DNA of 64,000 nt from a virus. The DNA is taken from the IMG/VR virus record IMGVR_UViG_3300035208_003482; one strand, written 5' to 3'. The translations under genes and the position numbers were made by a program. Below, piece by piece: positions 11,558-54,829 of the stretch. Below the pieces are notes generated by a model that saw only the letters and a program-made list of their open reading frames with translations, was not told the DNA's origin and did no database searches. Position 1 is the stretch's first letter, and each line of letters starts with the position of its first letter.

Positions 11558-12337
11558 CTAGGTTATTGATTCCTTCACAAGTCTTTTGTTTCCAACTCGT
11601 GAATAGAATCCTGTCTTAGAATTAAGTTCCCACACGTAAAGTTTCTCGGCCTGACTTCCATCAAGCATCATGTATTTATCATGTACAAATGGTTTACCTT
11701 CAGGTTCTCCATTATGTCCAGTTACAATTATCTTTTTCCATGAACACCTTATTTTGTTCTTAGCTAAATTACACATATGTGTATAAACAGATCTGTCCCA
11801 AGCTAAAACTTTTGGTTCTTGATTTTGGAGCGGTATGAATGGATCACACCCACCATGTACGAAAATGTAGTTATCATTTTCATAATATGGTAAAAGAGAT
11901 TCCATGAACTTGATATGTTTATCTGGAAAGAATCTCTTTATAGAGTTTCTTGAGATCAAGTATGGGTTTTCAACTTCTGAGTTAGCTCTTTGGAGATAAC
12001 CCATAAAGGTTTCCTCCCCTCCATTACTCATCCACATATTGTACGAACGAATTGAAGCATCTGGCTGAATAGCTTCCAATAACATAAGTTCATGATTACC
12101 AAGAAGAGTAATCACTTGATCTGGTGCTTCTTGTTTTGTTTTGATAAGTACGTCTATTACTTTATGAGAATCAAACCTTCTATCAACATAATCTCCAAGA
12201 AATACAAGCATATCCATACTACCACCAGTTCTACGCAGTGGTAGTATCCTTTTTAAGATTAGTTCTAACTCATCATACATTCCGTGTATATCCGGAATGA
12301 CGTACAAGCAACTATCTGCTGGTCTCCATTTACTCAA
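11558..12337 (-). CDS. Calcineurin-like metallophosphoesterase (Ser/Thr phosphatase-like)
   Basis: 'DIHG', 'LGDYVDRR', 'GNHE' phosphoesterase motifs. Confidence 0.6.
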   Translation of the reverse strand: MSKWRPADSCLYVIPDIHGMYDELELILKRILPLRRTGGSMDMLVFLGDYVDRRFDSHKVIDVLIKTKQEAPDQVITLLGNHELMLLEAIQPDASIRSYNMWMSNGGEETFMGYLQRANSEVENPYLISRNSIKRFFPDKHIKFMESLLPYYENDNYIFVHGGCDPFIPLQNQEPKVLAWDRSVYTHMCNLAKNKIRCSWKKIIVTGHNGEPEGKPFVHDKYMMLDGSQAEKLYVWELNSKTGFYSRVGNKRLVKESIT

Positions 12338-15344: not shown

Positions 15345-15675
15345 TATTCACTTTATCCCAATCTGGAATTTCAACAGTTTGATTCATCATCGAATGAGAG
15401 CAGTCCCCAAGGTATTGTATAAAACCATCAGTTACAAATGAATGGCATCTGTGGTCCTTACCATCAGCCGGGTCTCCGTACTTTGCGGTAGCTAACATTG
15501 ATGGAGTAAATGTCGGTTTTTCAAAATCACCATTGAAAGACCAACCCGGAATATCATTCTTCATCTTCTTATAGAAGACATGTGCAAATCCCATATCTTC
15601 AGCATCACATGCTGGACATCGAATTGCATATCCAATAACCTCACCATCTTTATTAACCACCTCATGTACCTTCAT
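15337..15675 (-). CDS. Hypothetical protein
   Basis: ORF. 'CPAC' motif. Confidence 0.25.
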   Translation of the reverse strand: MKVHEVVNKDGEVIGYAIRCPACDAEDMGFAHVFYKKMKNDIPGWSFNGDFEKPTFTPSMLATAKYGDPADGKDHRCHSFVTDGFIQYLGDCSHSMMNQTVEIPDWDKVNNE

Positions 15676-16280
15676 TTAAGCTCCTCGAATAAATGATCAT
15701 CACCATTACAATGCTCTCTTAATCGTAAATACCAAGATTCACGCTTAAGCTTGAACATCAATATGGTGTTTCCTTTACCCTTGGTCTTACAAACGATACC
15801 CTCAGAACCCATACCTTCAAGAGTTCCGTTCCTTACAGAATCAAGTAGTGTATTGTTACAATTACCTTGATAAAGTAATGGAGCGTGGTTCATGTCACCA
15901 AAACTATCAAGAAATTCCCTTGGTGGAAGGATGCCTCGCTTATATGGATTAGCATCAATTAGATAAACATTATGGTCATCAGTTTCTATATGATTACCAA
16001 AAGATGAATTTGGTCCTGCAAATTCATAGAAAAGAATGATACTTTCCCATCTGTTCTTTTCACAGATCTTCGCTACCGTATCTTGCTGCTCTAGAATGAG
16101 TCCTTGAGCTTTAGAAAGAATTGGGTGCTCATCACTAAGCAAACGCTTGCGTGAACCAAACTTATAGAACCCGCGCTTCTTGCTCCATTCAGCTCTGATG
16201 TTTGAGCCGTCAATCTTATCAAAACCATAAATGGGAAGACCCATCTGAATTATAGATGAGATAGATGGATATGATTTCAT
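15672..16280 (-). CDS. ATP-dependent RNA ligase-like nucleotidyltransferase domain (Rnl2/small RNA-ligase type)
   Basis: Ligase motif I 'FDKIDGSN' (KxDG), motif III 'ILFYEFAGPNS', motif IV 'EGIVCK', motif V 'LMFKLK'. Confidence 0.5.
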   Translation of the reverse strand: MKSYPSISSIIQMGLPIYGFDKIDGSNIRAEWSKKRGFYKFGSRKRLLSDEHPILSKAQGLILEQQDTVAKICEKNRWESIILFYEFAGPNSSFGNHIETDDHNVYLIDANPYKRGILPPREFLDSFGDMNHAPLLYQGNCNNTLLDSVRNGTLEGMGSEGIVCKTKGKGNTILMFKLKRESWYLRLREHCNGDDHLFEELK

Positions 16281-38485: not shown

Positions 38486-39682
38486 ATGTCGTTCAAAGCG
38501 TTTCGATACAGAATCTATCCATCAAAAGAACAAGAAGCTTTTCTTGCTAAATCTTTTGGCTGCAATCGCTTTGTCTTTAATTTCTTCCTCAATAGAAGAA
38601 AACAAGAATATACTAATTCTAAAAACAACTTGAATTATTATGATCTTGCTAAAGAACTTACTCAACTAAAACAACGACAAGAATTTTCTTGGCTTAATGA
38701 TGTTAATTCTCAGATGTTGCAAAGCTCTCTTCGTAACATCGAAACTGCTTATACCAAATTCTTTACCAAACAGAATAAGTTTCCTAGATTCAAAAGCAAG
38801 AAGAATGAACAATGCTTTAAAATTCCACAAGCATTCTCTATAGAAGATGGTTTACTTTGGATACCTAAACTAAAATCCGGAATCAAAATTCGTCTTCATT
38901 CTCCTATTGGTGGTAAATTTGTATCTTGTTGTATTCGTAAAACTTGTTCTGGAAAGTATTATGCAAGTATTCAAACAGAACTTGAAATTGCTAAACTTCC
39001 ATTAAGTAATAATAAGGTTGGTTTAGATCTTGGAATCAAACATCTTATTACTGATTCAAATGGTAACAAGATTGATAATCTAAAAGCTTACAAATCCAAA
39101 CAAAAGAAATTAGCTTATAGAAGCAAACAACTGAGTAAGAAACAAAAAGGATCTTCAAATAGAAATAAAGCAAGAATATTGCTTGCTTTGATTCATGAAA
39201 AGATTTCAAACATAAGAAAAGATTACTTACACAAATTAAGTCATAAGATAGTTAGCGATAACCAAGTTATTATCTGTGAAGATTTAAGTGTAATCAAAAT
39301 GATGAAGAATCATAATCTTTCTAAGAGTATTGTAGATGCTTCTTGGGGAGAGTTGTTAAGGCAACTTGAATACAAATCAGAATGGTATGGAAGAACGTTT
39401 TATAAGATTGATAAATACTTTCCATCAAGTAAGATGTGTAATCAATGTAATTATGTTCTTCAAGATATGGAGCTTAAGGTTAGAGAATGGGAATGTCCAA
39501 AATGTCATGCAAAGCATGATAGGGACAAGAATGCAGCCAATAATATATTGGAACAAGGCTTAAAAGATTTGGGTTTATGGAACGTAATCCCAGAGAAGAA
39601 TTCTGAAAAGGATTCTTTGAAACAAAAACTTGGGGAGGCGCTATCAGTTGATAGGTCTGAGAACCAAGAAACTATTGCTTAA
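38486..39682 (+). CDS. tnpB: TnpB (IS200/IS605 OrfB-type RNA-guided endonuclease)
   Basis: 'MSFKAFRYRIYPS...FGCNRFVFN', 'DLGIKHL', 'ICEDLSV', 'CNQCN...CPKCHAKHDRDKNAANNI'. Confidence 0.8.
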   Translation: MSFKAFRYRIYPSKEQEAFLAKSFGCNRFVFNFFLNRRKQEYTNSKNNLNYYDLAKELTQLKQRQEFSWLNDVNSQMLQSSLRNIETAYTKFFTKQNKFPRFKSKKNEQCFKIPQAFSIEDGLLWIPKLKSGIKIRLHSPIGGKFVSCCIRKTCSGKYYASIQTELEIAKLPLSNNKVGLDLGIKHLITDSNGNKIDNLKAYKSKQKKLAYRSKQLSKKQKGSSNRNKARILLALIHEKISNIRKDYLHKLSHKIVSDNQVIICEDLSVIKMMKNHNLSKSIVDASWGELLRQLEYKSEWYGRTFYKIDKYFPSSKMCNQCNYVLQDMELKVREWECPKCHAKHDRDKNAANNILEQGLKDLGLWNVIPEKNSEKDSLKQKLGEALSVDRSENQETIA

Positions 39683-39718
39683 AGCATTGGTAGTTCACAC
39701 TGAAAATTGCCTACTTAC
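39520..39718 (+). ncRNA. Candidate omega-RNA for the second TnpB (scaffold ends 'GGTAGTTCAC' at 39689-39698; guide about 39699-39718)
   Basis: '...GCTTAAAGCATTGGTAGTTCAC|ACTGAAAATTGCCTACTTAC'. The guide overlaps the 3' end of the converging phosphatase gene. Boundaries are approximate. Confidence 0.4.
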
Positions 39719-40442
39719 GTTCAATCAATATCAAGTCAGTTAGAGACCCTTGTGATACAATTTGCCCGGTTAAAATGCCGGTATCGTAACATTTTGTATC
39801 AAGATTGCACGAATGTTTGTAGAATTTTGGAACCCCATCAGCCTGGGAATCATGTCCAGAGATGATGTATCCAAACCTGCCATCATACCGTTCGTGCCAC
39901 AGAGTGCCAGGCTTTTCGGCTTTGAGCTTTTTACAGCCATCTATTTCAGTCCAAACTAATGGAATGGGTCGATCTTTCTCGCCCAGCGTCCTAACATACA
40001 TCACCTCGGTATTGTTGGAGACATTACTCCAGGTATGTTTAGGGGTTACTCCGGCGTGAACTACGGTAATCCTATTGTTGTTTGAAAACACAAAACTGAG
40101 AATCAGAGGAAGTTGGGCGCACCACTCTAGCTCTGGACTCAGTTTCTTTTTGTCATCAGTGGTTCGTTTAATGATTCTTTGCTCATGGTTGCCTCGTACC
40201 ATGTAAGCCCAACCGTTTTCAACTAAACCACGAATTCTATTAATGATTCGCTCAGCTACATGATGTCCTTCCCCTTTGTCATAGACATCACCCAAGCAAA
40301 CCAAAATGCGCTTTGTACCAACCTCAGCGCGCTCTATAAGTTGTTCAAAATGCCATTCATTCTCGTGAATGTCACCAACAACAACTAGTTCTTGACTTTT
40401 CGGTATCTTAATTGTATGAATCATTACACCTATATATGCCAA
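39711..40442 (-). CDS. Metallophosphoesterase (PP2A-like Ser/Thr phosphatase)
   Basis: 'VVGDIHE', 'LGDVYDKG', 'RGNHE'. Confidence 0.6.
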   Translation of the reverse strand: MAYIGVMIHTIKIPKSQELVVVGDIHENEWHFEQLIERAEVGTKRILVCLGDVYDKGEGHHVAERIINRIRGLVENGWAYMVRGNHEQRIIKRTTDDKKKLSPELEWCAQLPLILSFVFSNNNRITVVHAGVTPKHTWSNVSNNTEVMYVRTLGEKDRPIPLVWTEIDGCKKLKAEKPGTLWHERYDGRFGYIISGHDSQADGVPKFYKHSCNLDTKCYDTGILTGQIVSQGSLTDLILIERK

Positions 40443-41027: not shown

Positions 41028-41567
41028 TTACTCCGGTTCAGGATCTAGGAGCTTCTGTCGATTGTTTTCAATTGCTTGTTGCAATGCGGTCGCTGAATTG
41101 ATTTGGATGCCACCCTTCTCTTCTAGGTGTGCGCAGAAAGCGCACAGTCCAAAAAGAATCTCTCCCATTGCTTTATGAAGTTCTTCATGGCTTTCTCCGT
41201 CTGCTAGGTCTTCCAAAGAGTTTCTAATTCCTCGAATGATCTTTTTTCGATCTAGGTCAGAATAACTCTTAGCTACGGACTCAGCCTCATTCCAGATTGT
41301 CTCGAAGTGCATCCAACTTTCTCCCTGAGGATATCCTGAAGATGAAGCTTCGTCAAGAACTATTTTCTGTTCGACAACTTCATCTGCGGAATCTTCATCT
41401 TTCGGTTTTTCGTTTAAACCATATGGGTCTCGGCAGTATGGGCAGGTGTACTGAGTGTCGTCCGGCTGGCCATCCCAATCCGAGGTGTCGGGAAGCTCGT
41501 GCCGCCAGACCCAACCAGCACCACCACATACATTACAATCTTTATTCTCCATATTCCTTGACTGCAT
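41028..41567 (-). CDS. Hypothetical Cys-rich protein
   Basis: 'CNVCGGAG...CPYC'. Confidence 0.25.
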   Translation of the reverse strand: MQSRNMENKDCNVCGGAGWVWRHELPDTSDWDGQPDDTQYTCPYCRDPYGLNEKPKDEDSADEVVEQKIVLDEASSSGYPQGESWMHFETIWNEAESVAKSYSDLDRKKIIRGIRNSLEDLADGESHEELHKAMGEILFGLCAFCAHLEEKGGIQINSATALQQAIENNRQKLLDPEPE

Positions 41568-42231
41568 TGACTATATCAGCAAGTGGAGCCATTGCTCCCT
41601 TACCAAGTACTCCGCAAGCAAGTTTGGATTCTACTGGCTCAACGATGCATAATCTTTGTGTGAAAATCACTGGTTTCTCTCTAACAGAGTTACCAATAGT
41701 TATAGGTTGGTAATCTATAGATTCATATGATTTCTGTGGACCTGATAACTCTTCGTCTTTTTTAGCTAGTCTTGAGAATGAATGACGCGTCCTAAGCTCT
41801 TTCAAATGTTTATCGGTCAAAGGATTGTTCAACATATCTGTATTCATTGCAGGGGCCACAACGATGTTTTTATCACTTGGCCATGCATAGTACAAAGATG
41901 TTAGGAGATTATCACAGATTCCAACAGCCATCTTTGTAAGAGTGTTTGCTGAAAGTGGAGCGATTACCAAGACATCGGCCCAGTCTTTAAGGTCGATATG
42001 AAGAACTTGGTCACCGATTTTCTTCCAAGACCACTCATTAGAATCACTATACACCTCTCCACTAGAAGCTATATGGAGTAAGTCTTTGTTCTCAGCTAGA
42101 GCTGTGGATGCGAAGTACGCGCCCTTGTCTGTTAAGATTCCTTTAACGGTACCAACATCTTGAAGAGCTTTGAACAAGCGCCAGTATTTGATTGCAGCAA
42201 CACTTCCAGTTCCTGCCAGAAGAATATTCAT
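41542..42231 (-). CDS. coaC: Phosphopantothenoylcysteine decarboxylase-like flavoprotein (CoaC domain)
   Basis: 'ILLAGTGSVAAIK', 'VLVIAPLSANTLTKMAVGICDNLLT', 'PAMNTDMLNNP'. Confidence 0.65.
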   Translation of the reverse strand: MNILLAGTGSVAAIKYWRLFKALQDVGTVKGILTDKGAYFASTALAENKDLLHIASSGEVYSDSNEWSWKKIGDQVLHIDLKDWADVLVIAPLSANTLTKMAVGICDNLLTSLYYAWPSDKNIVVAPAMNTDMLNNPLTDKHLKELRTRHSFSRLAKKDEELSGPQKSYESIDYQPITIGNSVREKPVIFTQRLCIVEPVESKLACGVLGKGAMAPLADIVNAVKEYGE

Positions 42232-42511: not shown

Positions 42512-42973
42512 ATGGCCCATAGTATCCGTCTGTTAATAAATAGATTGTATGATGCTAAAATCAGAAAGATAAATGATTATCAGCATAAAGTCTCGAAGAG
42601 ACTTGGTTCAACATATGATACAATCTATGCAGAAGATCTTTCTGTCAAAACAATGTCAGAAAGTAAGTTCAAGAACCTAAATAAAGCATTACGAAATGCT
42701 AAACTGTCGCAATTCTTATTATTCTTAGGATATAAGAGTAAGAAATTAGTACTAGTAAATCCAAAGAATACATCAAAAACATGTAATACATGTGGAAAGG
42801 TACATGATATAAAGTTATCAGATAGGATAATATCGTGTAGTTGTGGGAGTGTATATGATAGAGATGAGAATGCGGCAAGAAATATTTATTGCTTGGGACA
42901 AGCTATTGAGGATAATCCTCAATATGTTGGATCGTTAACGATCCAAGAAGCCCTTGCCTTTAGGCATGGGTAG
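42512..42973 (+). pseudogene. N-terminally truncated TnpB remnant (RuvC-II, Zn finger and RuvC-III only) retaining the conserved 3' end and omega-RNA terminus
   Basis: 'YAEDLSVK', 'CNTCGK...CSCGSVYDRDENAARNI'. Lacks the RuvC-I Asp and the N-terminal half. Ends 'GGGTAGTTCAC' at 42969-42978. Confidence 0.6.
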
Positions 42974-43094: not shown

Positions 43095-43820
43095 TTACGA
43101 TTTAGTGACGGTTTTAGATCTATCATACTTCTCTTGGACAAGCTTCAAAAGATTAGCTGGAAGGTCGGCTCTTGTAGATTCAACAAGCAACCCATCGCCA
43201 CAGATGTACATGTTAGGACTTGGTTGGTTGAAATCATCCAACACATTAGCTACGATGAAGTCAGCGGAAGATACAGTACGAGACTTCCGAGCAATCTCTA
43301 GAAGCTCTTCTTTGGTAATTCCAACCTGAAGTTTAAACTTGACTAATACTCCATTGAAACCCCAAGGCTCTCGGATATAGTCAACAAGCTTCGGAGTCTG
43401 AATGCATTTGATGTAGATCTCTGGATATTCAGATGAAACCTTTGCAGCCTTAATAGAATGCAAACCTTTGTTGTAATAATCGTGAGGTTCGGGAGCGAGA
43501 ACATCCACTGGTCTATAATCGCTCACAGCTGCTGAATGAATGATGACATCATAGTTACCAGAAGTAATTTCTTCTTTCATTCTGGCTTCTAGTTCATCAA
43601 ACGTTTTGTACGTAATAAGATTAAGCTTACGCTCCCTATCAATCATACTAGGCGCTTGAAGCATTTCGTTCGAGCTTGGGTTACCAATGAGTGTAACTTC
43701 ATTGTCCTGTGCCGCTTCCCAAGCAATGGATGTTCCAGTTTTACCCTTGAAGATGTTCGAGATTGTACGAACATGATCGATAGGCATCTGCGTTGAACCT
43801 GCTGTTACTAGGATTTTCAT
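43095..43820 (-). CDS. coaB: Phosphopantothenate-cysteine ligase-like (CoaB domain)
   Basis: 'KILVTAGSTQMPIDHVRTISNIFKGKTG' resembles the CoaB 'VTAGPTxEPIDPVRxISNxSSGKMG' signature. Confidence 0.6.
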   Translation of the reverse strand: MKILVTAGSTQMPIDHVRTISNIFKGKTGTSIAWEAAQDNEVTLIGNPSSNEMLQAPSMIDRERKLNLITYKTFDELEARMKEEITSGNYDVIIHSAAVSDYRPVDVLAPEPHDYYNKGLHSIKAAKVSSEYPEIYIKCIQTPKLVDYIREPWGFNGVLVKFKLQVGITKEELLEIARKSRTVSSADFIVANVLDDFNQPSPNMYICGDGLLVESTRADLPANLLKLVQEKYDRSKTVTKS

Positions 43821-44302: not shown

Positions 44303-44584
44303 TTATCTAATTCTCTTAGCAAATTCTTGTTTGAACAGTCTCAAGAACTCTGGTTGTTCACCAGTTCTCTCTAACATCTTGATGATATTATACATGTGAT
44401 TGTCAGTTATCTTAGACAATGGAATACATCGGCCTTCGGCGGTACGCCAAACAATCTCACCGATAAGTTTGTGATAGCACCATTGCTGAAGTATTCCAAG
44501 ATATCTAATCATGAAATACCCAAGACGCTGAGTTCTGTTTAGTGAACTCCAATCTTCTTTGGTAACCGCTTGTTTAGTATTCAT
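44303..44584 (-). CDS. Hypothetical protein
   Basis: ORF. Confidence 0.25.
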   Translation of the reverse strand: MNTKQAVTKEDWSSLNRTQRLGYFMIRYLGILQQWCYHKLIGEIVWRTAEGRCIPLSKITDNHMYNIIKMLERTGEQPEFLRLFKQEFAKRIR

Positions 44585-45306
44585 AGTTTGATCATTTCTG
44601 TTGTCCAGTCACCGCCACTACACGCTGGGCCATCTTTGGATTTTATCTTCCAAGCTCGCTCGTCATTTATAAGCATTGCGGTTGATCTTGTTTCCCACCT
44701 ATGTTCGCTGTCATGAACACAAACAGAATCCTCAGAACCAATTCCGCAGTCATGTGAACTCATAAGTTTCAACAATGTGTTTGGATTAACCGGCTGAGAA
44801 AAGTCTTTAATCTGTGCAAGAAGATTCTTGCGAATAAAGGTGTCTCTTGGAACTTTCTGGTTGAATCCAATACCAGTTGAGATATGAACTCCAGCCTTTA
44901 GTTTTGTGACAATCAACTCCTTATTATCACAACTAAGATTGTACAAATCATTTGCAGTTCCAGCAACCATATTAAATGGTTTATGCTCCCTAGCATCTAG
45001 TCCTGCCCAATACTCAACAACATCAATGATGTTTGTCTTCTTTAAAGACTCAAGAACCAAATGACCACGAGATTTAAGACCTCTTCCATGGAAGTTCTCA
45101 TCTAAATCCCAGTTGGTAATCGCACAAAAGATACCAGAGGTATTAGCTCCAATCCATGTTCCACCCAGAACATCCAATGGACAGTAAATAGAACTCTGCC
45201 TAATACTCCAAGGAGTACTAGGACGAGTTGGATTCTCATCCCTATTGGATGCAATTACCAAAGGTGTTTTTGTTTTTGGATAGAATGCTACAACCAAAGT
45301 ACACAT
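44581..45306 (-). CDS. NRDE/TANGO2-family (Ntn-hydrolase-like) protein
   Basis: N-terminal 'MCTLVVAF...IASNRDE'. Met-Cys start typical of the family. Confidence 0.45.
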   Translation of the reverse strand: MCTLVVAFYPKTKTPLVIASNRDENPTRPSTPWSIRQSSIYCPLDVLGGTWIGANTSGIFCAITNWDLDENFHGRGLKSRGHLVLESLKKTNIIDVVEYWAGLDAREHKPFNMVAGTANDLYNLSCDNKELIVTKLKAGVHISTGIGFNQKVPRDTFIRKNLLAQIKDFSQPVNPNTLLKLMSSHDCGIGSEDSVCVHDSEHRWETRSTAMLINDERAWKIKSKDGPACSGGDWTTEMIKL

Positions 45307-46059: not shown

Positions 46060-46509
46060 CTATAATCTATAGATTGGAGGATCTGCTCGCTCCCATTTAA
46101 TCTCCTGCTCACCTTTGTAATAGACCAGCTTGCCATCTTCGAATCCCCACTTCTCATATGACGCTCCGTCATAGATTGTTTCAAAGATGATGAACGATCC
46201 ATTTTCGACGTAAGGGGCTAGCTTCTGGAAGAATTCAAACTCTACTCCATCAACCCAGCCCTCACACTCTCTGTTGATTTTAGTAATCCCATCTTGGCGA
46301 GAAGCAAGAGCCCTCCAACCAATATTACTAACAACTTCTTTAATTGAGTCATCGTTTGGATAATGCTCAATAAGAAACTTGTCAACATTCTCTCTGGTGA
46401 CTTTGAACGTTCCGGATGTGTTGATACTATCTACGCCCATGTTATTACCCCTTAACGCAAACGATCTGTCGAAGCTCGTGTTGAATTTCAACAAGATCCT
46501 TTTGAGCAT
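46060..46509 (-). CDS. Hypothetical protein
   Basis: ORF. Confidence 0.25.
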   Translation of the reverse strand: MLKRILLKFNTSFDRSFALRGNNMGVDSINTSGTFKVTRENVDKFLIEHYPNDDSIKEVVSNIGWRALASRQDGITKINRECEGWVDGVEFEFFQKLAPYVENGSFIIFETIYDGASYEKWGFEDGKLVYYKGEQEIKWERADPPIYRL

Positions 46510-47686
46510 TCATTACGTCTTCGATATTTTTGTAAGCACCTGGAGTCTCATCAAGGACAGAAGAATCTTTCTTACACTCAATACCTTCCGTTGCTTTGAT
46601 ATGATCTTCAACAGTAAATGTTTTCATAGCTTGGGTTCTGCTCATCTTTCTACCAGCACCATGTGATGCAGATTTGTAAGCATCTTCATTACCCAAACCT
46701 TTAACAATATATGTCTTTGCACCCATGCTCCCAGGAATTATAGCGAGCCTGCCAAGGTCAGCATTAATTGCTCCCTTTCTAGTAATTAGAACATTTCTAC
46801 CAAAATGGTTTTCATAAGCAATATAGTTATGATGACAGCTAATTGTTTGAACATCACGTTCAAACTTCGGAACTAACTTACTCTTCTTAAGAGCTTTTAA
46901 ACCAAAGTCTCTCATTAACTCCCTGTTAATTTGAGCATATCTTTGCGCCCATTTGATACCTTGCATATAATCATTGAAGGCATCTGTTCCCTTTGGAAGA
47001 AAGGCCAGATCAACATCTGGTAATTCTATAAACCATCTTTTCATCTCACTTTTTGCTAAGTCAATGAAATATTGTCCGATTTTATTTCCAGGTCCACGGG
47101 ATCCTGAATGTAGAGATATCCCAACTCTATTAAGATCATCCACTACAATTTCATAGTAGTGATTATTACTTCCGAGTGTTCCTAACTGACTTATCGGATT
47201 TTTATGAGCAAGTTTTGGATGCTTCTTAACTAGGTCTTTGTATCCTGGTTCTAGTTCTTCCCAAGCAATACAAACCTCTGTTGGGATATTTCTCCAAGAA
47301 CCTTTGTCATTTTCTTCTTTTGGATAAAATCCATGAGGAATTGCATCCTCTAAAGCTTCCCTAATGGAAAGTAAATCTTTTGGTAGCATATCATATTTTA
47401 AAGTTGTCAATTCATAATCACACCCGCATCCAATGTCTACCCCGCAAGCTGCCGGAATTATTGCGTTTATTGTCGGAATTACAGATCCTATTGTTGCACC
47501 AATACCACAATGAGCATCAGGCATAACAGCAAGTCCATGAGGATCTATAAATGGAAGATTTGCAACATTATGAAGTTGCATTTCCGCTTGTTGTTCAATT
47601 TCAACTCCAAGCGTCCAACGTTTAATTGGTACCTTGGCACCGATTTGTTTTTCGATATTTCCATCTCTATAAACGTGATAGTTCAT
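46445..47686 (-). CDS. rtcB: RtcB-family RNA ligase (3'-phosphate/5'-OH RNA-splicing ligase)
   Basis: 'MPDAHCGIGATIGSVIPT', 'CGVDIGCGCD', 'HSGSRGPGNKIG', 'CHHNY', 'SHGAGR'. Confidence 0.85.
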   Translation of the reverse strand: MNYHVYRDGNIEKQIGAKVPIKRWTLGVEIEQQAEMQLHNVANLPFIDPHGLAVMPDAHCGIGATIGSVIPTINAIIPAACGVDIGCGCDYELTTLKYDMLPKDLLSIREALEDAIPHGFYPKEENDKGSWRNIPTEVCIAWEELEPGYKDLVKKHPKLAHKNPISQLGTLGSNNHYYEIVVDDLNRVGISLHSGSRGPGNKIGQYFIDLAKSEMKRWFIELPDVDLAFLPKGTDAFNDYMQGIKWAQRYAQINRELMRDFGLKALKKSKLVPKFERDVQTISCHHNYIAYENHFGRNVLITRKGAINADLGRLAIIPGSMGAKTYIVKGLGNEDAYKSASHGAGRKMSRTQAMKTFTVEDHIKATEGIECKKDSSVLDETPGAYKNIEDVMNAQKDLVEIQHELRQIVCVKG

Positions 47687-47730
47687 AATTTCCTCACAAT
47701 GGTGCGCTGTACCTGTTATATTGTAACTTT

Positions 47731-48507
47731 ATGGATGGTTATTTCAAAACACAAGAATGTTTAGAATATTTTTGCGGGTTAGTCATTTCTGATGGTCATA
47801 TGAGGAAAAGTACCAGAAACAGAGGTTGTGTAAGCATTGAATTGAAAGATACCGATTCTGACATTTTAAGTAAGTTAAAGAATGAAATTCTTGTAAATTC
47901 AACATTAAGAAATCGTACAAGATCTTCAAACTTTTCAAATTCATTTTCCAGTAGAACTCTTAATGTTTTTGATAAAGGATTTAGAGATTTTATCGAAACT
48001 CTTGGAGTTCCTTATGGAAAGAAAAATGATGTCATTATTCCTGAATGGTTTAAGTTCAACTCCAATTTTTGGAGAGGTATGATTGATGGTGATGGATCGT
48101 TGGGTTTAGTAAAAAAAGGATATTGTTTCGTATCTTTGATAACAAAAAGTGAAAGTGTTGCAACTTCTTATATGTCTCTTGTTTCTGGAATTATAGGTAG
48201 GTCTGTTAATGCAAATAGAAATAAACGAGATTCTGTTTATAACATAACCGTTTCAAATGAAGACGCTAAGAGATTGGTTAATTGGCTTAATTATTCTTCT
48301 GATTTATCTCTTAATCGTAAAAGGAACAAAGCAAAAGAAGTTCTAAGTTGGAAAAGGCCACATGGAATGAGAAGAGCTCATAGACAAAAACGATGGTCTA
48401 AACAAGAAGATGATTACATTTTATCTCACTCACTAAGTGATTCTGTTAACAATCTTAAAAGAACAGAGATGAGTATTAAGATGCGTCTGTGGCGTCTTAA
48501 GAACTAG
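47731..48507 (+). CDS. Free-standing LAGLIDADG homing endonuclease
   Basis: 'YFCGLVISDGHM', 'FWRGMIDGDGSL'. Opposite strand to the flanking genes. Confidence 0.55.
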   Translation: MDGYFKTQECLEYFCGLVISDGHMRKSTRNRGCVSIELKDTDSDILSKLKNEILVNSTLRNRTRSSNFSNSFSSRTLNVFDKGFRDFIETLGVPYGKKNDVIIPEWFKFNSNFWRGMIDGDGSLGLVKKGYCFVSLITKSESVATSYMSLVSGIIGRSVNANRNKRDSVYNITVSNEDAKRLVNWLNYSSDLSLNRKRNKAKEVLSWKRPHGMRRAHRQKRWSKQEDDYILSHSLSDSVNNLKRTEMSIKMRLWRLKN

Positions 48508-48815
48508 TTCACAATATCACCAAAGAAAGAACCATTACAACCAGTGCAATCAAAGATTTGTTCTGGTTGTAAATTGTTTACATCACCATCAACCGGCATT
48601 TGAATTACCGGTCCTTGTTCTAGTTTCGACCCACAATGCGGACAATTATACGTACCAGATGGCAGTCTCTCAACGGGGTTTCCAAGTTCCTCAGGATTAG
48701 AACTCTTAAAAAGTTCCTCTAGTTGTTTTGCAATTCCATCTCTCTGATCTTTTGGAAGGCTATCTAGAGCGCCATTTGCGAATATAACCTTCATTGGTTT
48801 TTTAGAATTGCTCAT
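48504..48815 (-). CDS. Hypothetical Zn-ribbon protein
   Basis: 'CPHCGS...CTGCNGS'. Confidence 0.25.
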   Translation of the reverse strand: MSNSKKPMKVIFANGALDSLPKDQRDGIAKQLEELFKSSNPEELGNPVERLPSGTYNCPHCGSKLEQGPVIQMPVDGDVNNLQPEQIFDCTGCNGSFFGDIVN

Positions 48816-49144
48816 TATCGTAACCTTTCAATCTCACCATAATCACCAATCGATATACTATCTTCTGGATGAATATTAAGAATTCTTTTTACAGCTGTTT
48901 CGGCATTTCCTATGTATTTATCAAACTGTTGTTGAAGAGATTTCTCTTTATCTTTGTATTCTTGTTTTATTTGACTCAAACGTCCGTCCCATCCAGGATC
49001 GTAAAAAGCTTGACTATACATTTCATGTGCGGATGAAGCACCCTCTGCCAGTGTTTCAAGCTGGATATCTGTTAGTGATAAATTGCAATCTTCAGCAGAT
49101 TGGGCAATACATTCTTTCCAATACTCTAAGTCACTCATTTTCAT
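48815..49144 (-). CDS. Hypothetical protein
   Basis: ORF. Confidence 0.25.
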   Translation of the reverse strand: MKMSDLEYWKECIAQSAEDCNLSLTDIQLETLAEGASSAHEMYSQAFYDPGWDGRLSQIKQEYKDKEKSLQQQFDKYIGNAETAVKRILNIHPEDSISIGDYGEIERLR

Positions 49145-49475
49145 CCTTAATCACACCCGCATCAAAACGGTTGTTCCATGCATGACAAATCTCACACATC
49201 TCATCAATTACTTTACCATGAATAGGTTTACAACAATCAGCACAATAAACAATACCAAATAACTTATCTAAGTCTTCTGATATTTCAATTGTAAAGATTT
49301 CATCACCACAAGTAGTACAAGTAGGAATTTTGAAGTCAGCGGGAATAGGAAGGTGATGCCCCTTTACAATTTCGTATGTACGCCCTTCGCGTGCAACCAA
49401 TTCTATTTGGCCGCCGCATTCGAGACATCTAGGAAAAAACACTGGAATTTTTACCATGCGGAAGCATCGTACCAC
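49131..49475 (-). CDS. Hypothetical Zn-ribbon protein
   Basis: 'CLECGG', 'CTTCGD', 'CADCC...CEICH'. Confidence 0.25.
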   Translation of the reverse strand: MVRCFRMVKIPVFFPRCLECGGQIELVAREGRTYEIVKGHHLPIPADFKIPTCTTCGDEIFTIEISEDLDKLFGIVYCADCCKPIHGKVIDEMCEICHAWNNRFDAGVIKDENE

Positions 49476-49543
49476 AAAGAAAATCCCCAGTCAACACTTT
49501 TCGACTAGGGACTTCTGTCTTGACACTTATAGTTGTCTGGTCA

Positions 49544-49957
49544 TTAATATGGTTGAATATTTTCCAAGTCTGTAATTGGCTCTCTTTCATTTGAAAGCCG
49601 CTCGATAACTTCGATTAGATCTTGTTGTCCATTCTTAACTGCTCGCTCTATACATTCTTCTTTGGGTGTAAAGAATTCAATATATTTACACAACCATAAT
49701 TCTGACTTCCATTCTTTACGTCTAGATTTTGTTAAACAAGTTGAGTCAAGAATAACAGTATCATGTCCCGCATAAAATAATGCCCTTATCATTACCTTAG
49801 CAGTTAGGATAATAAAAGGCTCCATTACTTGGTTTCGTTTATCTCCATGTAATGCTAGCCTAATACTATCAAGAGATACAATTGGAAGACCCTGTGTTTT
49901 AGTCCAAGTGGATTTACCAGAACGAGGTAAACCAACTGTCATTATTAGAGTTTTCAT
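49544..49957 (-). CDS. P-loop kinase (polynucleotide kinase-like kinase domain)
   Basis: 'TVGLPRSGKSTW' Walker A. About 137 aa. Confidence 0.4.
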   Translation of the reverse strand: MKTLIMTVGLPRSGKSTWTKTQGLPIVSLDSIRLALHGDKRNQVMEPFIILTAKVMIRALFYAGHDTVILDSTCLTKSRRKEWKSELWLCKYIEFFTPKEECIERAVKNGQQDLIEVIERLSNEREPITDLENIQPY

Positions 49958-49958
49958 G

Positions 49959-50204
49959 TTACTTATCTTCTTTTTGCCAATCCATTACTCTTCTAACTTC
50001 AGTATCAAACTTTTCATAAGCTTGACGTGATGTTTCTACTCCAGGAAGTAATGTTTCTTTTCCAGTAGAGAAGAATTTAATACTACACGTTCGTTCGTTT
50101 TTAGTTACAACTATTCTTAGATGCTTAGCCCCACCCTTTGTTGTTAACCTTATCTTATCTTTGTATTCATTAATATCAGTAATATTTTTCATATTCATTA
50201 CCAA
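49959..50204 (-). CDS. Hypothetical protein
   Basis: ORF. Confidence 0.2.
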   Translation of the reverse strand: MVMNMKNITDINEYKDKIRLTTKGGAKHLRIVVTKNERTCSIKFFSTGKETLLPGVETSRQAYEKFDTEVRRVMDWQKEDK

Positions 50205-50731
50205 TCAACGTGCTCCCCTGTTAAACCAAAAACAACTTTACCATTGTACTTGGCAGTTATGTCTTTGAACTTTTCCTTAGCTTCAGCCAGGTCATTCTGG
50301 ATTTGTTGTAGGTCAAACTCTTTTACGAATGGTCTATAGTAATTATAATCTCCAAGAGTTATGTATTCTTTAACAATAAAGACCCAGTTACAATCATCTT
50401 CAATAAAGCCTTCGCCGATAGAATCTTCTCCGAAGGTAACATGATTTTCGATTCCAAGTTCCTTCATCTCGGCTCGAACATCCGGAATCGGAACTGTTTG
50501 TTCCTGATTGTCACCTCTATAGTTTTTTGGAGATTCTGTGACTTCTATGTACTTTCCACCACAATGTGAGCAGAACTCACCATATCCATTCTGTAACCTT
50601 CCACATTTATCACATTTATTAAATGTAGCCATGAGAGGTTCTTTCTTAGAACCAGTCACAGGAATAACCACTAAGATTCCTAGAACCTGGGAATCAACAT
50701 TTACTGTACTGATTACATCATAGTATTGCAT
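50198..50731 (-). CDS. Hypothetical Zn-ribbon protein
   Basis: 'CDKCGRL...CSHCGG'. Confidence 0.25.
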   Translation of the reverse strand: MQYYDVISTVNVDSQVLGILVVIPVTGSKKEPLMATFNKCDKCGRLQNGYGEFCSHCGGKYIEVTESPKNYRGDNQEQTVPIPDVRAEMKELGIENHVTFGEDSIGEGFIEDDCNWVFIVKEYITLGDYNYYRPFVKEFDLQQIQNDLAEAKEKFKDITAKYNGKVVFGLTGEHVDW

Positions 50732-50737
50732 AAAATA

Positions 50738-50989
50738 CTAATCTTCCCATCTAATTTCAACGTTCGAATCATCTCTACTATGAAACTCTTTAACGGTAAG
50801 ACCTTCCTCTACTAGAAGTCTCCAAGCTTCTGCAGGAATTTCTTCTTTCGAAACGGTGATTTTCTGCTCACCTTTCTTAGCAGCTTCCTTACAGAGCTGA
50901 GAAAGTTTTTTGAAACAAAATATACCATGCTCATTAAGCATCGTTCTATGTGCAGCATTCAGTAATAGAAGTTCATCTTTAAGTCCCAT
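50738..50989 (-). CDS. Hypothetical protein
   Basis: ORF. Confidence 0.2.
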   Translation of the reverse strand: MGLKDELLLLNAAHRTMLNEHGIFCFKKLSQLCKEAAKKGEQKITVSKEEIPAEAWRLLVEEGLTVKEFHSRDDSNVEIRWED

Positions 50990-51221
50990 AGTATTCCTCT
51001 TTTATCTCTGTATCATTAGGTGATGTAACTGTTACATTTGCATGATAATCAGTATATGTATCAAGATCAGAATCCTCTTCGGAATAATAGATATCTACAT
51101 TTACTTTATCAGTGTCAGCAATTGCGGCAACATTTCGAACATGAGCTTCAATGATTTGTTTAATCTCTTTGATGTCAAGTCTAATTGATGTTGTCTTAGT
51201 AATGGTTTTAGTTATTTTCAT
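50979..51221 (-). CDS. Hypothetical protein
   Basis: ORF. Confidence 0.2.
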   Translation of the reverse strand: MKITKTITKTTSIRLDIKEIKQIIEAHVRNVAAIADTDKVNVDIYYSEEDSDLDTYTDYHANVTVTSPNDTEIKEEYYGT

Positions 51222-51316
51222 ATAGCTTTTACCAAAGAAATAATAATATCTAGCGCCTCATAAAGCTCAGATGGTTCTTTCTTGCAAAGAACATCTCTGG
51301 TCTTTGTTTTATGTTC

Positions 51317-51790
51317 TCAAGCGCTTGTGCTAATTGCAAAATGAATCTGCTTCGCTATGATTTGTTTAGCCTTTTTAATGTGCTCTTCTAACAGACCAGT
51401 CTCGAAACTTGTCTTAACAAGCATGTCTTGAACTGTACTCATGTCATCGTCATCATCGAGGATTACAAAAGCATCAACATGAATCTGTCTAAGCCAAAGT
51501 TCGATCTCATCTCCTCTTTGGCCTTTTGTTTCAGAAGACGTTGCACCAATAATACGCTCAGGGTATTTGAACCCAACCTTCTCAAGTGCATTTTGTAGCC
51601 AGAATATTGGATGACCAATACGCCAAGAAGAAGAAATCACAACACTAGCATTGGTTTCTTCTAGTAGTTTATTGAGAATCTGTACACGCTCAGGATCAAT
51701 TTCCAATCCAGGATTCTTTAGAAGAAAACTCTGACTATTCAGAACGCCATCTATATCTAAAAAACAAATAATAGTTTTTACGTTTAACAT
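51317..51790 (-). CDS. HAD-superfamily phosphatase (Pnk 3'-phosphatase-like)
   Basis: 'ICFLDIDGVLN' DxDG motif I. Small size typical of Pnk-type phosphatases. Confidence 0.45.
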   Translation of the reverse strand: MLNVKTIICFLDIDGVLNSQSFLLKNPGLEIDPERVQILNKLLEETNASVVISSSWRIGHPIFWLQNALEKVGFKYPERIIGATSSETKGQRGDEIELWLRQIHVDAFVILDDDDDMSTVQDMLVKTSFETGLLEEHIKKAKQIIAKQIHFAISTSA

Positions 51791-51847
51791 GTTAACTTAC
51801 ATTACCAGAGAAAATATCTGCGCTAAGTTCTGTTATTTGAATATCTT

Positions 51848-52336
51848 TTAAGGAGAAATAGAGTCAGAATAAGAACGGCGTTTGTAAATAGTTTCTGCAC
51901 CTTTGCGAATTTTGGGATTCAACTTAGAGATTTGAATCTCTTCATGTCCTGGTCTTGATGTGAAAATAGTAAAAAAGATTCCACGAACAAGGTCGAGCTT
52001 GGCAAGTCCGACAGCTTCTCCTACATAATAAGTTCGTCCATTCTGATCGACCATCGGATAAAGATCAACACTAATCCTAGATTTATTCATGTATAGATCA
52101 TCATCTGTTTTTGATCTTCGAGATGTTGTAAGAGGTGCAATTTGCAACTCTTCTTGGCCATCTTCTGAAAGAAATATAAAGAAAGAAACTCCGCACTCAA
52201 ATTTTAATGTACCAGGAAATTGCAGTTTACCAATATAGTAAGGTTGATCATTTGCGTCTCTAGCAATCTTCTTAAGATCAACACGCGTCTTTGCCTCAGG
52301 ATCAATGTAGATATCGTCTTCCATTTTAAGTACCAT
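51848..52336 (-). CDS. Hypothetical protein
   Basis: ORF. Confidence 0.25.
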   Translation of the reverse strand: MVLKMEDDIYIDPEAKTRVDLKKIARDANDQPYYIGKLQFPGTLKFECGVSFFIFLSEDGQEELQIAPLTTSRRSKTDDDLYMNKSRISVDLYPMVDQNGRTYYVGEAVGLAKLDLVRGIFFTIFTSRPGHEEIQISKLNPKIRKGAETIYKRRSYSDSISP

Positions 52337-52679
52337 TATCTTTCTTATTGGGCTTGATAAGCCCTAAAAGCTTCTGTAACGATTCAGGATCAACACTTCC
52401 AATAACATCCCCATTGGGATATATTAGCCTAATATTTATAGGTATTTCATCTTTAGAGACACCACCATTTCTTCCAACTTTGATTTTGTAACCCTTGATA
52501 TGACCATCTCGGATTAGTTCTGACATCTCTTTTGAAAAACGATACTTCTCAATATCCGTCTTCAATCTTTGATTGAAAGAATTATAGATGGTTGCTTTTG
52601 GGATTGTTAATCCGTCTACACAAACATCTTGTAGAACATTCTTTAATATCTCAATGTGATCCTTTAAGTGTGTCATCAT
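52326..52679 (-). CDS. Hypothetical protein
   Basis: ORF. Confidence 0.25.
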   Translation of the reverse strand: MMTHLKDHIEILKNVLQDVCVDGLTIPKATIYNSFNQRLKTDIEKYRFSKEMSELIRDGHIKGYKIKVGRNGGVSKDEIPINIRLIYPNGDVIGSVDPESLQKLLGLIKPNKKDNGT

Positions 52680-53520
52680 AATCGCGTTCCGGTCGAAAGA
52701 TATCTGACCCAGTAGTAATGATTGTATTCAACCATTCCTTTGAATCGTTAAACAAAGGAACACTGAAGTCAGAGATCCATTTATGTCGAGTTACTTGTCC
52801 TTGTGCTGTTGGATAGAAAGCTGGAGCAAGATAGGTTGCTGAACCATGACGAAATGCGCTGGGCAAGGAATCGAATTCAAACCCGGCCTCATCTAGGATT
52901 TGTCTTCTATCATTCATATCCTTATCTTCTAGTATTGAATATGTCTGATTTCCATAACGGTTCCAAAGAACAGATCTAACGGCTTCATCTACAGCATTTT
53001 GAATACATCTAAACTGTCTGTAAAGTAGATAGTTAATTGTCTCCTTAATTGATGGTACACCAAATGCGTGAGCTGAAAATGTGACAGAGCCATCTAAGTC
53101 TGGTGGGTTATTCATTTCCCACATATGAGTCATGAATTCATATGTTGCCATTGACGCGGCTGACGAAGACATCTTTTGAGTGTTGTTTCCAAACCATGGC
53201 GTCTCATCTGCAGAACGATCATTTCGAAGAACTAAAATGATCTTATCACTGTACTGGTAACCAAATATTACACCATCTATTTGTTTAGCTAAAGATACCA
53301 TAGTACTGTTAAATAGTAACATAGTTCTCTGACAGAATGGTTTTGGTATGTTTTTAGTTACACGAGTGAAAGACCTTCCATCTATTTTTATGATGACAGG
53401 AATTCTACTAATGATTGTTTGGTTGTAAGAACTCTCGTAAGCTAACTGTCTGTGTTGTAACGATTGAGCCATGTTTCTCCATGACTCCAAATCCAAATGG
53501 AACGTAGGAGCCTTACGCAT
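52651..53520 (-). CDS. Thg1-like protein (tRNA 3'-5' nucleotidyltransferase family)
   Basis: 'VIIKIDGRSFTRVTKNIPKPFCQRTMLLFNSTMVSLAKQIDGVIFGYQYSDKIILVL' parallels the Thg1 core '...VRLDGRNFHRF...KPND...AYGQSDEYSFVF'. Confidence 0.55.
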   Translation of the reverse strand: MRKAPTFHLDLESWRNMAQSLQHRQLAYESSYNQTIISRIPVIIKIDGRSFTRVTKNIPKPFCQRTMLLFNSTMVSLAKQIDGVIFGYQYSDKIILVLRNDRSADETPWFGNNTQKMSSSAASMATYEFMTHMWEMNNPPDLDGSVTFSAHAFGVPSIKETINYLLYRQFRCIQNAVDEAVRSVLWNRYGNQTYSILEDKDMNDRRQILDEAGFEFDSLPSAFRHGSATYLAPAFYPTAQGQVTRHKWISDFSVPLFNDSKEWLNTIITTGSDIFRPERDYDDTLKGSH

Positions 53521-53614: not shown

Positions 53615-54829
53615 CTACCATCTTCCGATATCAATCGTAAGACCAACATCCTGAGCCCAACTCAACATGTACTTGTACTCTTCAGAATCATACATCCTAT
53701 TGTATCTCCCTCTAGCCTGTACAATTCTTCTCTGAAGATTTCTAACCTCGATAGTGATCATTTTCTCACCATTACGAGACATACTCCAAATAGATGTTTG
53801 GCCAGATGAAATGCTTCGGCCATAAGATGCTACGCAGTGATGATGAGTAGAACCCTCTTTGTGAAGTTCTTTTGATGTAAGTATCTCTTCAATCCTCCAA
53901 ATCTCGTGAATGTGGCCTGTACGTTCTTTCTTGGTAACTTCCCAATGACCACATTTGAAACCAGAAGGTTTATAGTTACTCTCCTCGAAGTTTCGTTGTT
54001 TGGTTAACTCTCCGTGCCATTCGTTCATTCCTCGAATGACAGCAAGGACACTACGACCTTTCATTGAAAAGTCTTTGTCTTGGTTTTTGCGATACGCAAT
54101 ATAATCTAACAACGGTCCAAGCTGATTAAGATCAAGCATTGGATTTTTACATAACCAAGCAATTACAGAATCCCAAAACACTTCAGTTTCAGAAGAGTGC
54201 AGTGTTCTTCCAACATCACGAGACATCCAAGCTTGAAACAATCGGGCGCTACCACCGTGAGTTTCAAATTGAATTTGCCGCAATGCTTTCATGAAGTTTC
54301 GATCAGCTGGCGAGTTCAGGAACCTATGACATTGATTTCTATTCAGCGGCAAAGGAAAATCACCACTCTGACACATCTTTGCAAATGATTCTCCTGCGGC
54401 AATGCGCTGAACAATAGGACACAGAATATTAGCATTCTGTTCCCAGAATACGCTCCAGAGAAACTTTGGAACGGGATACTCTGCCCAAATATATTCAGCT
54501 AAAGAAATGAATTGAGTAAGCCGTCCTTTGCCCTGAGGAACCCAATCATAAATATCTTTCTTTGTTGACCTCGATAAAACCTTCACAGCTCCAAGGTATT
54601 CTTTGTCCAATAGTTTGGGAGCTTTGCTTTCAACAACATGAAAGAATGAAACGTTTTCACAATCAGGACTAAATCTTGATTTCTTTTTGTTGTCACGGGC
54701 AATCTGAATCTGAACATTCTGGTCTTTACGAACGGCGTCTAGGGCCTGCCTCTCTCGAAGCAAGGCCCTATGCGCTTTCCTATTTTCCCAAGACTCTTTT
54801 GCCGCCAATCGTTTGCTAAGTTTTGACAT
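53615..54829 (-). CDS. PcfJ-like protein
   Basis: C-terminal 'HHCVASYGRSISSGQTSIWSMSRNGEKMITIEV...IVQARGRYN' resembles the PcfJ-like domain. Confidence 0.4.
   Translation of the reverse strand: MSKLSKRLAAKESWENRKAHRALLRERQALDAVRKDQNVQIQIARDNKKKSRFSPDCENVSFFHVVESKAPKLLDKEYLGAVKVLSRSTKKDIYDWVPQGKGRLTQFISLAEYIWAEYPVPKFLWSVFWEQNANILCPIVQRIAAGESFAKMCQSGDFPLPLNRNQCHRFLNSPADRNFMKALRQIQFETHGGSARLFQAWMSRDVGRTLHSSETEVFWDSVIAWLCKNPMLDLNQLGPLLDYIAYRKNQDKDFSMKGRSVLAVIRGMNEWHGELTKQRNFEESNYKPSGFKCGHWEVTKKERTGHIHEIWRIEEILTSKELHKEGSTHHHCVASYGRSISSGQTSIWSMSRNGEKMITIEVRNLQRRIVQARGRYNRMYDSEEYKYMLSWAQDVGLTIDIGRW

Follow-up and report, generated by a model that had tools for sequence, protein, structure and literature searches.

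What does a Thg1-like protein do beside RNA ligases and RNA end-healing enzymes in the genome of a phage? The question is raised by a 64,000-nucleotide stretch of the IMG/VR virus record IMGVR_UViG_3300035208_003482, hereafter called the window. Within 7 kb, its minus strand encodes an RtcB-type RNA ligase, a stand-alone P-loop kinase, a HAD_SAK_2 phosphatase and a Thg1-like protein. The initial annotation had proposed that these genes belong to a dispersed RNA repair toolkit. The four open reading frames (ORFs) are indeed found on that strand, with Pfam matches far above the curated cut-offs (Table 1). We consider it reasonably probable that the phage carries two complementary routes for mending broken RNA, most plausibly tRNA, together with a Thg1-like enzyme that would rebuild 5' ends. 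We infer that tRNAs are the substrates, that the enzymes cooperate and that the damage is inflicted by host defence nucleases.

RNA-end enzymes and a proposed repair scheme

The RtcB-type ligase of the window is complete and intein-free. Its alignment with the T. thermophilus and human RtcB chains runs from end to end, and the MPDAHCG, GSNNHY, HSGSRG, CHHN and SHGAGR motifs are all kept. According to the RtcB literature, these motifs carry the metal-binding Asp, Cys and His residues as well as, in the SHGAGR segment, the His that carries GMP. The enzyme is predicted to ligate a 5'-OH end to an end that carries a 3'-phosphate or a 2',3'-cyclic phosphate. Its closest phage relatives, at about 53% identity, are found in jumbo phages.

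The kinase resembles the kinase domain of T4 Pnk, whose chains 1ly1 and 1ltq are its nearest solved relatives. Its Walker A segment, GLPRSGKST, aligns with GCPGSGKST of T4, and the D-x-x-R motif of T4 (D35 and R38) is represented by D30 and R33. On the other hand, the T4 lid residue R126 is replaced by Asn109. The score against the bacterial Pnkp model TIGR04075 is far under the cut-off. Unlike T4 Pnk, the protein does not continue into a C-terminal HAD phosphatase domain; in the window, the phosphatase has its own ORF at a distance of 1.4 kb. Altogether, the kinase is predicted to be a 5'-OH polynucleotide kinase. In the phosphatase, the DxDxx nucleophile motif is readable as DIDGV (within FLDIDGVLN, residues 10-18), as is an acidic DDDDD segment, and the protein may heal ends that bear a 3' or 2' phosphate. 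Just 3' of the kinase gene lies a terminator-like hairpin (49480-49515, minus strand; a 15-pair stem followed by a T run), and no other long-stem site occurs on the coding strand across 44-58 kb. A promoter scan returned fewer sites than in shuffled controls and was not informative.

The initial annotation had also listed an Rnl-type ligase, a Pol-beta nucleotidyltransferase and a YqeY-domain protein elsewhere in the window. These families are upheld by PF09414 and phrog_548, by PF10127 and by phrog_1460, respectively, and the nucleotidyltransferase is RlaP, the RNA-ligase-associated family. The Rnl-type protein, whose profile match is to an Rnl2/Rnl5-like nucleotidyltransferase domain, keeps motif I (K-I-D-G, with Lys22) and, for motifs IV and V, the EGIVCK and FKLKR segments. 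It has no C-terminal domain and no solved relative was found by sequence search. RlaP keeps the G-S (H-G-S-H) and D-x-D (S-D-L-D) motifs of the Pol-beta fold, again with no solved relative found by sequence search, and would restore nucleotides at 3' ends. The RlaP and Rnl genes are 3 kb apart, in keeping with the link to ligases by which the RlaP family is defined (PMC7824862). The YqeY-type gene, close to RlaP, likely starts at the ATG at 21513. Two calcineurin-like phosphoesterases could be extra end-healing enzymes, a speculative possibility; phosphoesterases are partners of ATP-dependent ligases in jumbo phages (PMC7824862).

In the scheme that we propose, RtcB would join a 2',3'-cyclic-phosphate or 3'-phosphate end directly to a 5'-OH. 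Such ends are the products of metal-independent anticodon nucleases. In the second route, the Pnk-like kinase would phosphorylate the 5'-OH, HAD_SAK_2 would strip the 3' or 2' phosphate and RlaP would add back the nucleotides lost at the 3' end. Sealing of the resulting 3'-OH and 5'-P would then fall to the ATP-dependent Rnl, whose gene lies beside that of RlaP, 30 kb away from the other repair genes. Ends truncated on the 5' side would be restored by the Thg1-like protein, which would add nucleotides in the 3'-5' direction with the opposite strand of the helix as template; its activation step would use the 5'-phosphate that the kinase provides. The 3'-5' repair activity of Thg1-like proteins (TLPs) is established (PMC4820378; PMC6471195), and a published model of RNA repair in jumbo phages is built on the same families (PMC7824862). 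Of all the proposed roles, the 3'-5' step is the least certain.

The Thg1-like protein and its tail-bearing branch

The Thg1-like gene probably starts inside the listed ORF, at Met17, because homologues are about 273 residues long and begin there. The nearest solved relative of its product is BtTLP (4kgk; E=5e-24, about 27% identity). An AlphaFold2 (AF2) model, with a predicted local distance difference test (pLDDT) value of 86.5, was matched by Foldseek to 4kgk and 4kgm (E=4e-19; template modelling (TM) score 0.85-0.89), and all 32 significant PDB matches are Thg1 or TLP chains. Where hTHG1 has DCHINNLYNT, with the HINNLYN motif, the window protein has RCIQNAVDEA. Since this motif is missing and the best matches are bacterial TLPs, we file the protein as a TLP and not as Thg1 proper. 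The Thg1C domain (PF14413) was dropped as a discriminator, being weak even among canonical phage TLPs.

The Thg1 assignment in the initial annotation turned on the catalytic Asp and Glu residues, and it stands for the two Asp but not for the Glu. The metal ligands D30 and D75 of BtTLP (D29 and D76 of hTHG1) have D47 and D92 as their counterparts, whereas the third carboxylate of the S-D-E motif (E76 of BtTLP, E77 of hTHG1) is Lys93, giving S-D-K. The weight of this loss is lessened by the BtTLP and hTHG1 structures, in which the Glu does not coordinate metal; its contacts in BtTLP are with R28, against which it packs, and with R147, through a salt bridge (Hyde et al. 2013, PMC3701042). Hence, the Glu-to-Lys change is compatible with catalysis. 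Residues of the activation step (K44, S75 and N161 in ScThg1) are found as K60, S91 and N175, the Asn not being kept across the clade, and those of the nucleotidyl-transfer site (R27, K96 and R133 in ScThg1) correspond to K45, K116 and H151. Overall, the likeness to BtTLP (4kgk/4kgm) and to Methanosarcina acetivorans MaTLP (5axk-5axn) covers the fold, both metal Asp, the activation Lys and Ser, and the NN.QK and W/Y-R-Q segments. Compared to BtTLP, the window protein differs by Glu76 to Lys, Arg28 to Lys, Arg131 to His, and a C-terminal extension of 15 residues.

In an alignment of 85 sequences, namely the query and 84 database homologues, Lys occupies the Glu position of SDE in 82 of 85. The D92 column holds Asp in all 84 sequences with a residue there, and the D47 column holds Asp in 70/85, Asn in 9/85 and Glu in 2/85. 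The R27 equivalent is Lys in 77/85 and the K96 equivalent is kept in 38/85, while the R133 equivalent varies among cluster representatives. The extension carries a near-invariant T-G-S-D-I-F-R-P-E-R-D sequence.

The group that bears this tail is wider. When 1.84 billion cluster representatives were searched exhaustively with HMMER, 3,232 relatives were retrieved, of which the nearest 138 full-length ones (clusters at 50% identity) were examined. A G-x-D-[IV]-F-R tail is present in 58 of them; both metal Asp are kept in 13 of these 58 and all three carboxylates in 6, and the first Asp is most often replaced by Asn. By comparison, 57 of the 80 tail-less representatives keep both metal Asp and 56 keep all three carboxylates. 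The tail-bearing proteins come from uncultivated genomes, and the contig is viral wherever the genomic context is readable. A tblastn search of 50,697 phage records found Thg1-like proteins in 153 of them, with a best identity to the window protein of 31%. Five of these were examined (from FNU2, phage G, Erwinia Kaldavass, Caulobacter RB23 and Lak-A2); each has canonical motifs, R-x-D-G and Q-S-D-E, and is without the G-x-D-I-F-R tail. As far as the alignments tell, the two-metal site is often no longer intact in the unstudied branch to which the window protein belongs, although this protein itself keeps both Asp. Distant viral TLPs with 31-36% identity were also observed at L014 (9989-10792) and L016 (10010-10768), two of the related loci. 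Both are tail-bearing, have Asn for the first metal Asp (ITINGRSF and YTLNGRNF) and sit in unrelated gene contexts, without PcfJ or o117 partners.

Gene neighbourhood and alternative readings

The window proteins were compared by tblastn with 11 related loci. A block made of the NAD-dependent DNA ligase, a PcfJ-like protein, the Thg1-like protein and two uncharacterised proteins, o117 and o162, is preserved whole, with its order unchanged, in nine of the 11. In these nine loci, the identity is 46-84% for the Thg1-like protein and 49-71% for o162. The PcfJ-like gene lies just upstream of the Thg1-like gene, and o117 (25-72% identity) directly after it. No PDB relative of the PcfJ-like protein was found by sequence search. 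o117 has no family match in Pfam, PHROG, NCBIfam or PADLOC, and o162 has none in these four or in PDB-profile searches, nor any fold relative.

The repair genes follow this block less regularly. HAD_SAK_2 comes after it at the same relative place in four of the nine loci, RtcB is found no more than a few kb from the Thg1-like gene in six, and the kinase is linked to the block in one only, the closest relative (L001). In L001, the order ligase, PcfJ-like, Thg1-like, o117, o162, HAD, kinase, RtcB and TANGO2 recurs with other genes in between, so that the Thg1-like, HAD, kinase and RtcB genes succeed one another as in the window. Most of this order, with three of these four genes, is found in L002. 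Other repair genes occur at the same region, namely a KptA/Tpt1 2'-phosphotransferase in L003 and an Rnl-tRNA_bind fusion in L004. The TANGO2-family gene is kept downstream of the RtcB region in L001, L002 and L010. At L003, a 196-kb viral contig, Cas3, Cas7fv-like and Cas6f-type genes (1-2633) lie about 7 kb upstream of the Thg1-like block and look like a phage-borne type I-F-like CRISPR-Cas system.

Several of these findings weigh against the proposal of two repair routes completed by a 3'-5' enzyme. The region gathers RNA-end enzymes, but it is not a fixed operon, because the kinase is linked in 1/9 and the HAD phosphatase in 4/9 loci. The tightest partners of the Thg1-like protein are the uncharacterised PcfJ-like, o117 and o162 proteins, not repair enzymes. 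Healing by kinase and phosphatase destroys the substrates of RtcB, so the clustered enzymes belong to different routes; likewise, the two sealing routes need incompatible ends and are therefore alternatives and not a single pathway. No tRNA gene is present in the window to name a substrate, and no nuclease or defence gene that would name one is identifiable in the window or in the related loci. As for the Thg1-like protein, the third carboxylate is lost, and the R27 and R133 positions hold Lys and His. Asn or Glu in place of the first Asp in 11 of the 85 close sequences argues against a strict need for two-metal chemistry, and many members of the branch have lost a metal ligand.

It is conceivable, although rather unlikely in our view, that the Thg1-like protein is not a repair polymerase but a repurposed or non-catalytic Thg1 fold, for example a binder or modifier of RNA 5' ends. 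It would then work with its neighbours (the PcfJ-like protein, o117 and o162) as one module, and its closeness to repair genes would reflect no more than a shared location in an accessory region of this phage lineage. The near-constant SDK, the variable first Asp and the poor conservation of the K96 and R133 equivalents favour this view, as does the retention of all three carboxylates in few tail-bearing but most tail-less clusters. The PcfJ-Thg1-like-o117-o162 order, intact in 9/11 loci where HAD, kinase and RtcB are variable, points in the same direction, and the overlapping ORFs suggest coupled expression. Yet the window protein retains D47, D92, K60, S91 and N175, and the missing Glu is no metal ligand in BtTLP or hTHG1 (PMC3701042). 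Moreover, gene order within a single phage lineage may reflect ancestry and not function, and the distant tail-bearing TLPs at L014 and L016 have no such partner genes. With a little more hesitation still, one may imagine a distinct and so far undescribed four-gene huge-phage module (PcfJ-like protein, tail-bearing Thg1-like protein, o117 and o162) built around a repurposed Thg1 palm. This palm might have either a site remodelled with the Lys and the invariant tail Asp, or a role that dispenses with two-metal catalysis, for instance to cap or mark RNA 5' ends or to shield them from host nucleases, in place of 3'-5' polymerisation.

An involvement in tRNA maturation, not repair, seems improbable to us. 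The Thg1-like protein would then add G-1 to a phage tRNA-His or fix the 5' ends of phage tRNAs, and RtcB would splice or process phage RNAs. The Thg1 family does add G-1 to tRNA-His, which bacterial and archaeal TLPs can do opposite C73 (PMC6471195). Many tRNA genes are common in huge phages (PMC7824862), and phage records label these genes tRNA-His guanylyltransferase. However, the 64-kb window holds no tRNA gene and neither do the 20-kb flanks of 10 of the 11 related loci, a single tRNA-Arg being found near the distant TLP of L014. A search of the window for Rfam families, group I and II introns included, returned none, and the protein is of the TLP type, without the eukaryotic HINNLYN motif used for anticodon recognition. 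That the window is a cellular chromosome or giant plasmid, with ordinary cellular RNA-repair or housekeeping genes, is highly improbable. No capsid, portal or terminase gene was recognised in it, its largest ORFs have no match in PHROG profile searches or by tblastn against phages (for an 814-aa ORF, tblastn against the phage records found nothing), and it contains topoisomerase IA, NAD-dependent DNA ligase, ClpP and parts of CoaBC, genes of cellular type. Against a cellular origin, seven relatives are IMG/VR viral contigs of 78-435 kb, and many ORFs match phage families, among them RlaP, Apyc1, HNH and LAGLIDADG endonucleases and a DNA methyltransferase. The genes are nearly all short, packed and on the minus strand (G+C content of 29-42% across the window), and RtcB and RlaP have relatives in jumbo and huge phages. 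As close homologues of the Thg1-like protein sit on contigs of 114-453 kb, the window is part of a lineage of very large uncultivated phages. A megablast search with positions 46-54 kb of the window against the 50,697 phage records gave no match. We keep the two repair routes, with the Thg1-like protein acting on 5' ends, as the preferred reading.

Other genes of the window and relation to known systems

Table 1 Features of the window (positions in the 64,000-nucleotide stretch; bits are given against the curated cut-off)
Feature	Coordinates	Strand	Evidence and remarks
Thg1-like protein (TLP type)	52651..53472 (ORF as listed to 53520, 289 aa)	-	PF04446 E=4.4e-20, 72.4 bits vs 29.2; phrog_4717 E=8e-41
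RtcB-type RNA ligase	46445..47686	-	PF01139 E=1.9e-106, 357 bits vs 27, profile 1-426 of 426
Stand-alone P-loop kinase, 137 aa, like T4 Pnk kinase domain	49544..49957	-	AAA_33 E=2e-11; phrog_505 'polynucleotide kinase' E=6.5e-12
HAD_SAK_2 phosphatase, 157 aa	51317..51790	-	PF18143 E=1.3e-27, 97.3 bits vs 27.5, profile 1-138 of 139; phrog_1818
ATP-dependent RNA ligase (Rnl type), nucleotidyltransferase domain only	15672..16280	-	PF09414 E=1.6e-8, 35.3 bits vs 27; phrog_548 'RNA ligase' E=3.6e-11
RlaP, RNA-ligase-associated Pol-beta nucleotidyltransferase	19305..20399	-	PF10127 E=1.7e-22, 80.8 bits vs 23; phrog_388 E=1e-61
PcfJ-like protein	53615..54829	-	PF14284 E=4.8e-15, residues 301-380; several PHROGs of unassigned function matched
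o117, small uncharacterised protein	52326..52679	-	overlaps Thg1-like gene by 29 nt and o162 by 11 nt
o162, uncharacterised all-beta protein, two tandem repeats and basic tail	51848..52336	-	always two genes downstream of Thg1-like gene
YqeY/GatB-C-like protein	21076..21543	-	phrog_1460 'tRNA amidotransferase' E=6e-22
Calcineurin-like metallophosphoesterase	11558..12337	-	PF00149 E=1.9e-13
Second calcineurin-like phosphoesterase	39711-40442		E=1.7e-13
Apyc1 anti-Pycsar phosphodiesterase, MBL fold	62585-63451	-	PF23023 103.9 bits vs 50
Free-standing LAGLIDADG homing endonuclease	47731..48507	+	LAGLIDADG_3 E=3.9e-10 and Hom_end; between o103 gene and RtcB
Second free-standing LAGLIDADG homing endonuclease	56750-57811	+	directly upstream of NAD-dependent DNA ligase, opposite strand
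TANGO2-family protein	44581-45306	-	PF05742 E=7e-23
UvrD/AAA_30-type helicase	12379-14652	+	internal LAGLIDADG/Hom_end segment, residues ~249-344
TnpB (IS605 OrfB/Cas12f-like), full-length	2431-3576	-	
TnpB (IS605 OrfB/Cas12f-like), full-length	38486-39682	+	
TnpB C-terminal fragment	42512-42973	+	between two halves of split CoaBC
Split CoaBC	flavoprotein 41542-42231; DFP 43095-43820		
Major vault protein-like ORF, 864 aa	22144-24738	-	shoulder domain PF11978 E=5e-28; vault repeat PF17795 E=3e-9
Phenylalanyl-tRNA synthetase alpha subunit, N-terminal domain only, 358 aa	7289-8365	-	PF02912 E=7e-11
R2K-clade ATP-grasp enzyme	59732-60487	-	PF18299 E=5e-38
ClpP protease	30017-30679	-	E=5e-60
Inosine-uridine nucleoside hydrolase	34361-35260	-	

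The metallo-beta-lactamase (MBL)-fold hydrolase that the initial annotation had counted with the repair genes does not belong among them. It is Apyc1, a cyclic-nucleotide phosphodiesterase that acts against host signalling and not in RNA processing, and is 89% identical to the Apyc1-annotated gene of L001.

Selfish and phage-typical genes are numerous in the window and include endonucleases of the HNH and LAGLIDADG types, a helicase with an intein-like insert, a DNA methyltransferase, Apyc1, and two full TnpB genes plus one fragment. The LAGLIDADG endonuclease directly upstream of RtcB is a selfish element and not a repair enzyme, and is missing at the same position of the syntenic L001. Among the related loci, RtcB is intein-bearing in L003 (752 aa) and fragmented in L002; the gene is thus a target of selfish elements. 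The LAGLIDADG/Hom_end segment inside the UvrD-type helicase looks like an intein. A TnpB copy had been considered as a pointer to the host; its nearest cellular relatives are distant Bacillota, with 54% identity at most, and it was rejected as evidence, being a weak hint at best. The major vault protein-like ORF, which has no PHROG or PADLOC match, is unusual, as a counterpart of the eukaryotic major vault protein within a phage genome. Of phenylalanyl-tRNA synthetase, the 358-aa ORF contains just the N-terminal part of the alpha subunit; lacking the catalytic core, it may serve as a module that binds tRNA.

The initial annotation had called the repair set unusually complete, which overstates the case. 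Jumbo phages carry RtcB and ATP-grasp ligases in any combination, with Rnl1 and Rnl2 named among their ligases, together with polynucleotide kinases, phosphoesterases and a CCA-adding enzyme (Iyer, Anantharaman, Krishnan, Burroughs & Aravind 2021, PMC7824862, a study that builds on Burroughs & Aravind 2016). RlaP is their commonest nucleotidyltransferase, and Thg1 occurs "sporadically" (PMC7824862). In our tblastn search, RtcB was found in 703 phage records, RlaP in 733 and HAD_SAK_2-like proteins in 206, besides the 153 with Thg1-like proteins; the last include Bacillus phage G, Bastille-like Bacillus phages, Lak megaphages, and Caulobacter, Erwinia and Xanthomonas jumbo phages. The published sets share with the window the enzyme families, the type of genome and the proposed purpose, the reversal of host attack on tRNA (PMC7824862). 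In contrast to them, the kinase and the HAD phosphatase of the window are separate small ORFs, no tRNA genes lie nearby and the Thg1-like branch was not seen in any of the 153 TLP-holding phage records. Likewise, phage TLPs labelled tRNA-His guanylyltransferase are phage-borne proteins of about 250 residues and of the TLP type, often encoded in genomes that have RtcB or RlaP. The five examined are canonical and tail-less, unlike the window protein with its SDK motif and tail.

The same heal-and-seal logic is seen with Pnk plus Rnl1 and Rnl2 of phage T4. The window kinase shares with T4 Pnk the P-loop, the Asp and the Arg, and its phosphatase is of the DxD HAD type. However, kinase and phosphatase are fused in T4, the T4 phosphatase belongs to a different HAD family, and the equivalent of R126 is Asn in the window. 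In T4, tRNA repair by these enzymes counters the PrrC anticodon nuclease. To our knowledge, T4 has no RtcB, RlaP or Thg1.

The toolkit as such is one more huge-phage lineage of an already published pattern. Its non-canonical component, and a candidate new variant, is the Thg1-like protein. The Thg1 and TLP enzymes are, as far as we know, the only 3'-5' polymerases, and their active site has so far been treated as invariant. The branch is not small: at 50% identity, it accounts for 58 of the 138 nearest clusters. If the four-gene module exists, the wider tail-bearing group would be a large family of non-canonical Thg1 derivatives. Should the tail-bearing proteins be active, they would show how large a part of the Thg1 active site an enzyme can do without; should they be inactive, they would represent a recurrent reuse of the Thg1 fold for something else. 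Either way, the protein of the window, which combines both Asp with the SDK motif, would be a convenient first member to assay.

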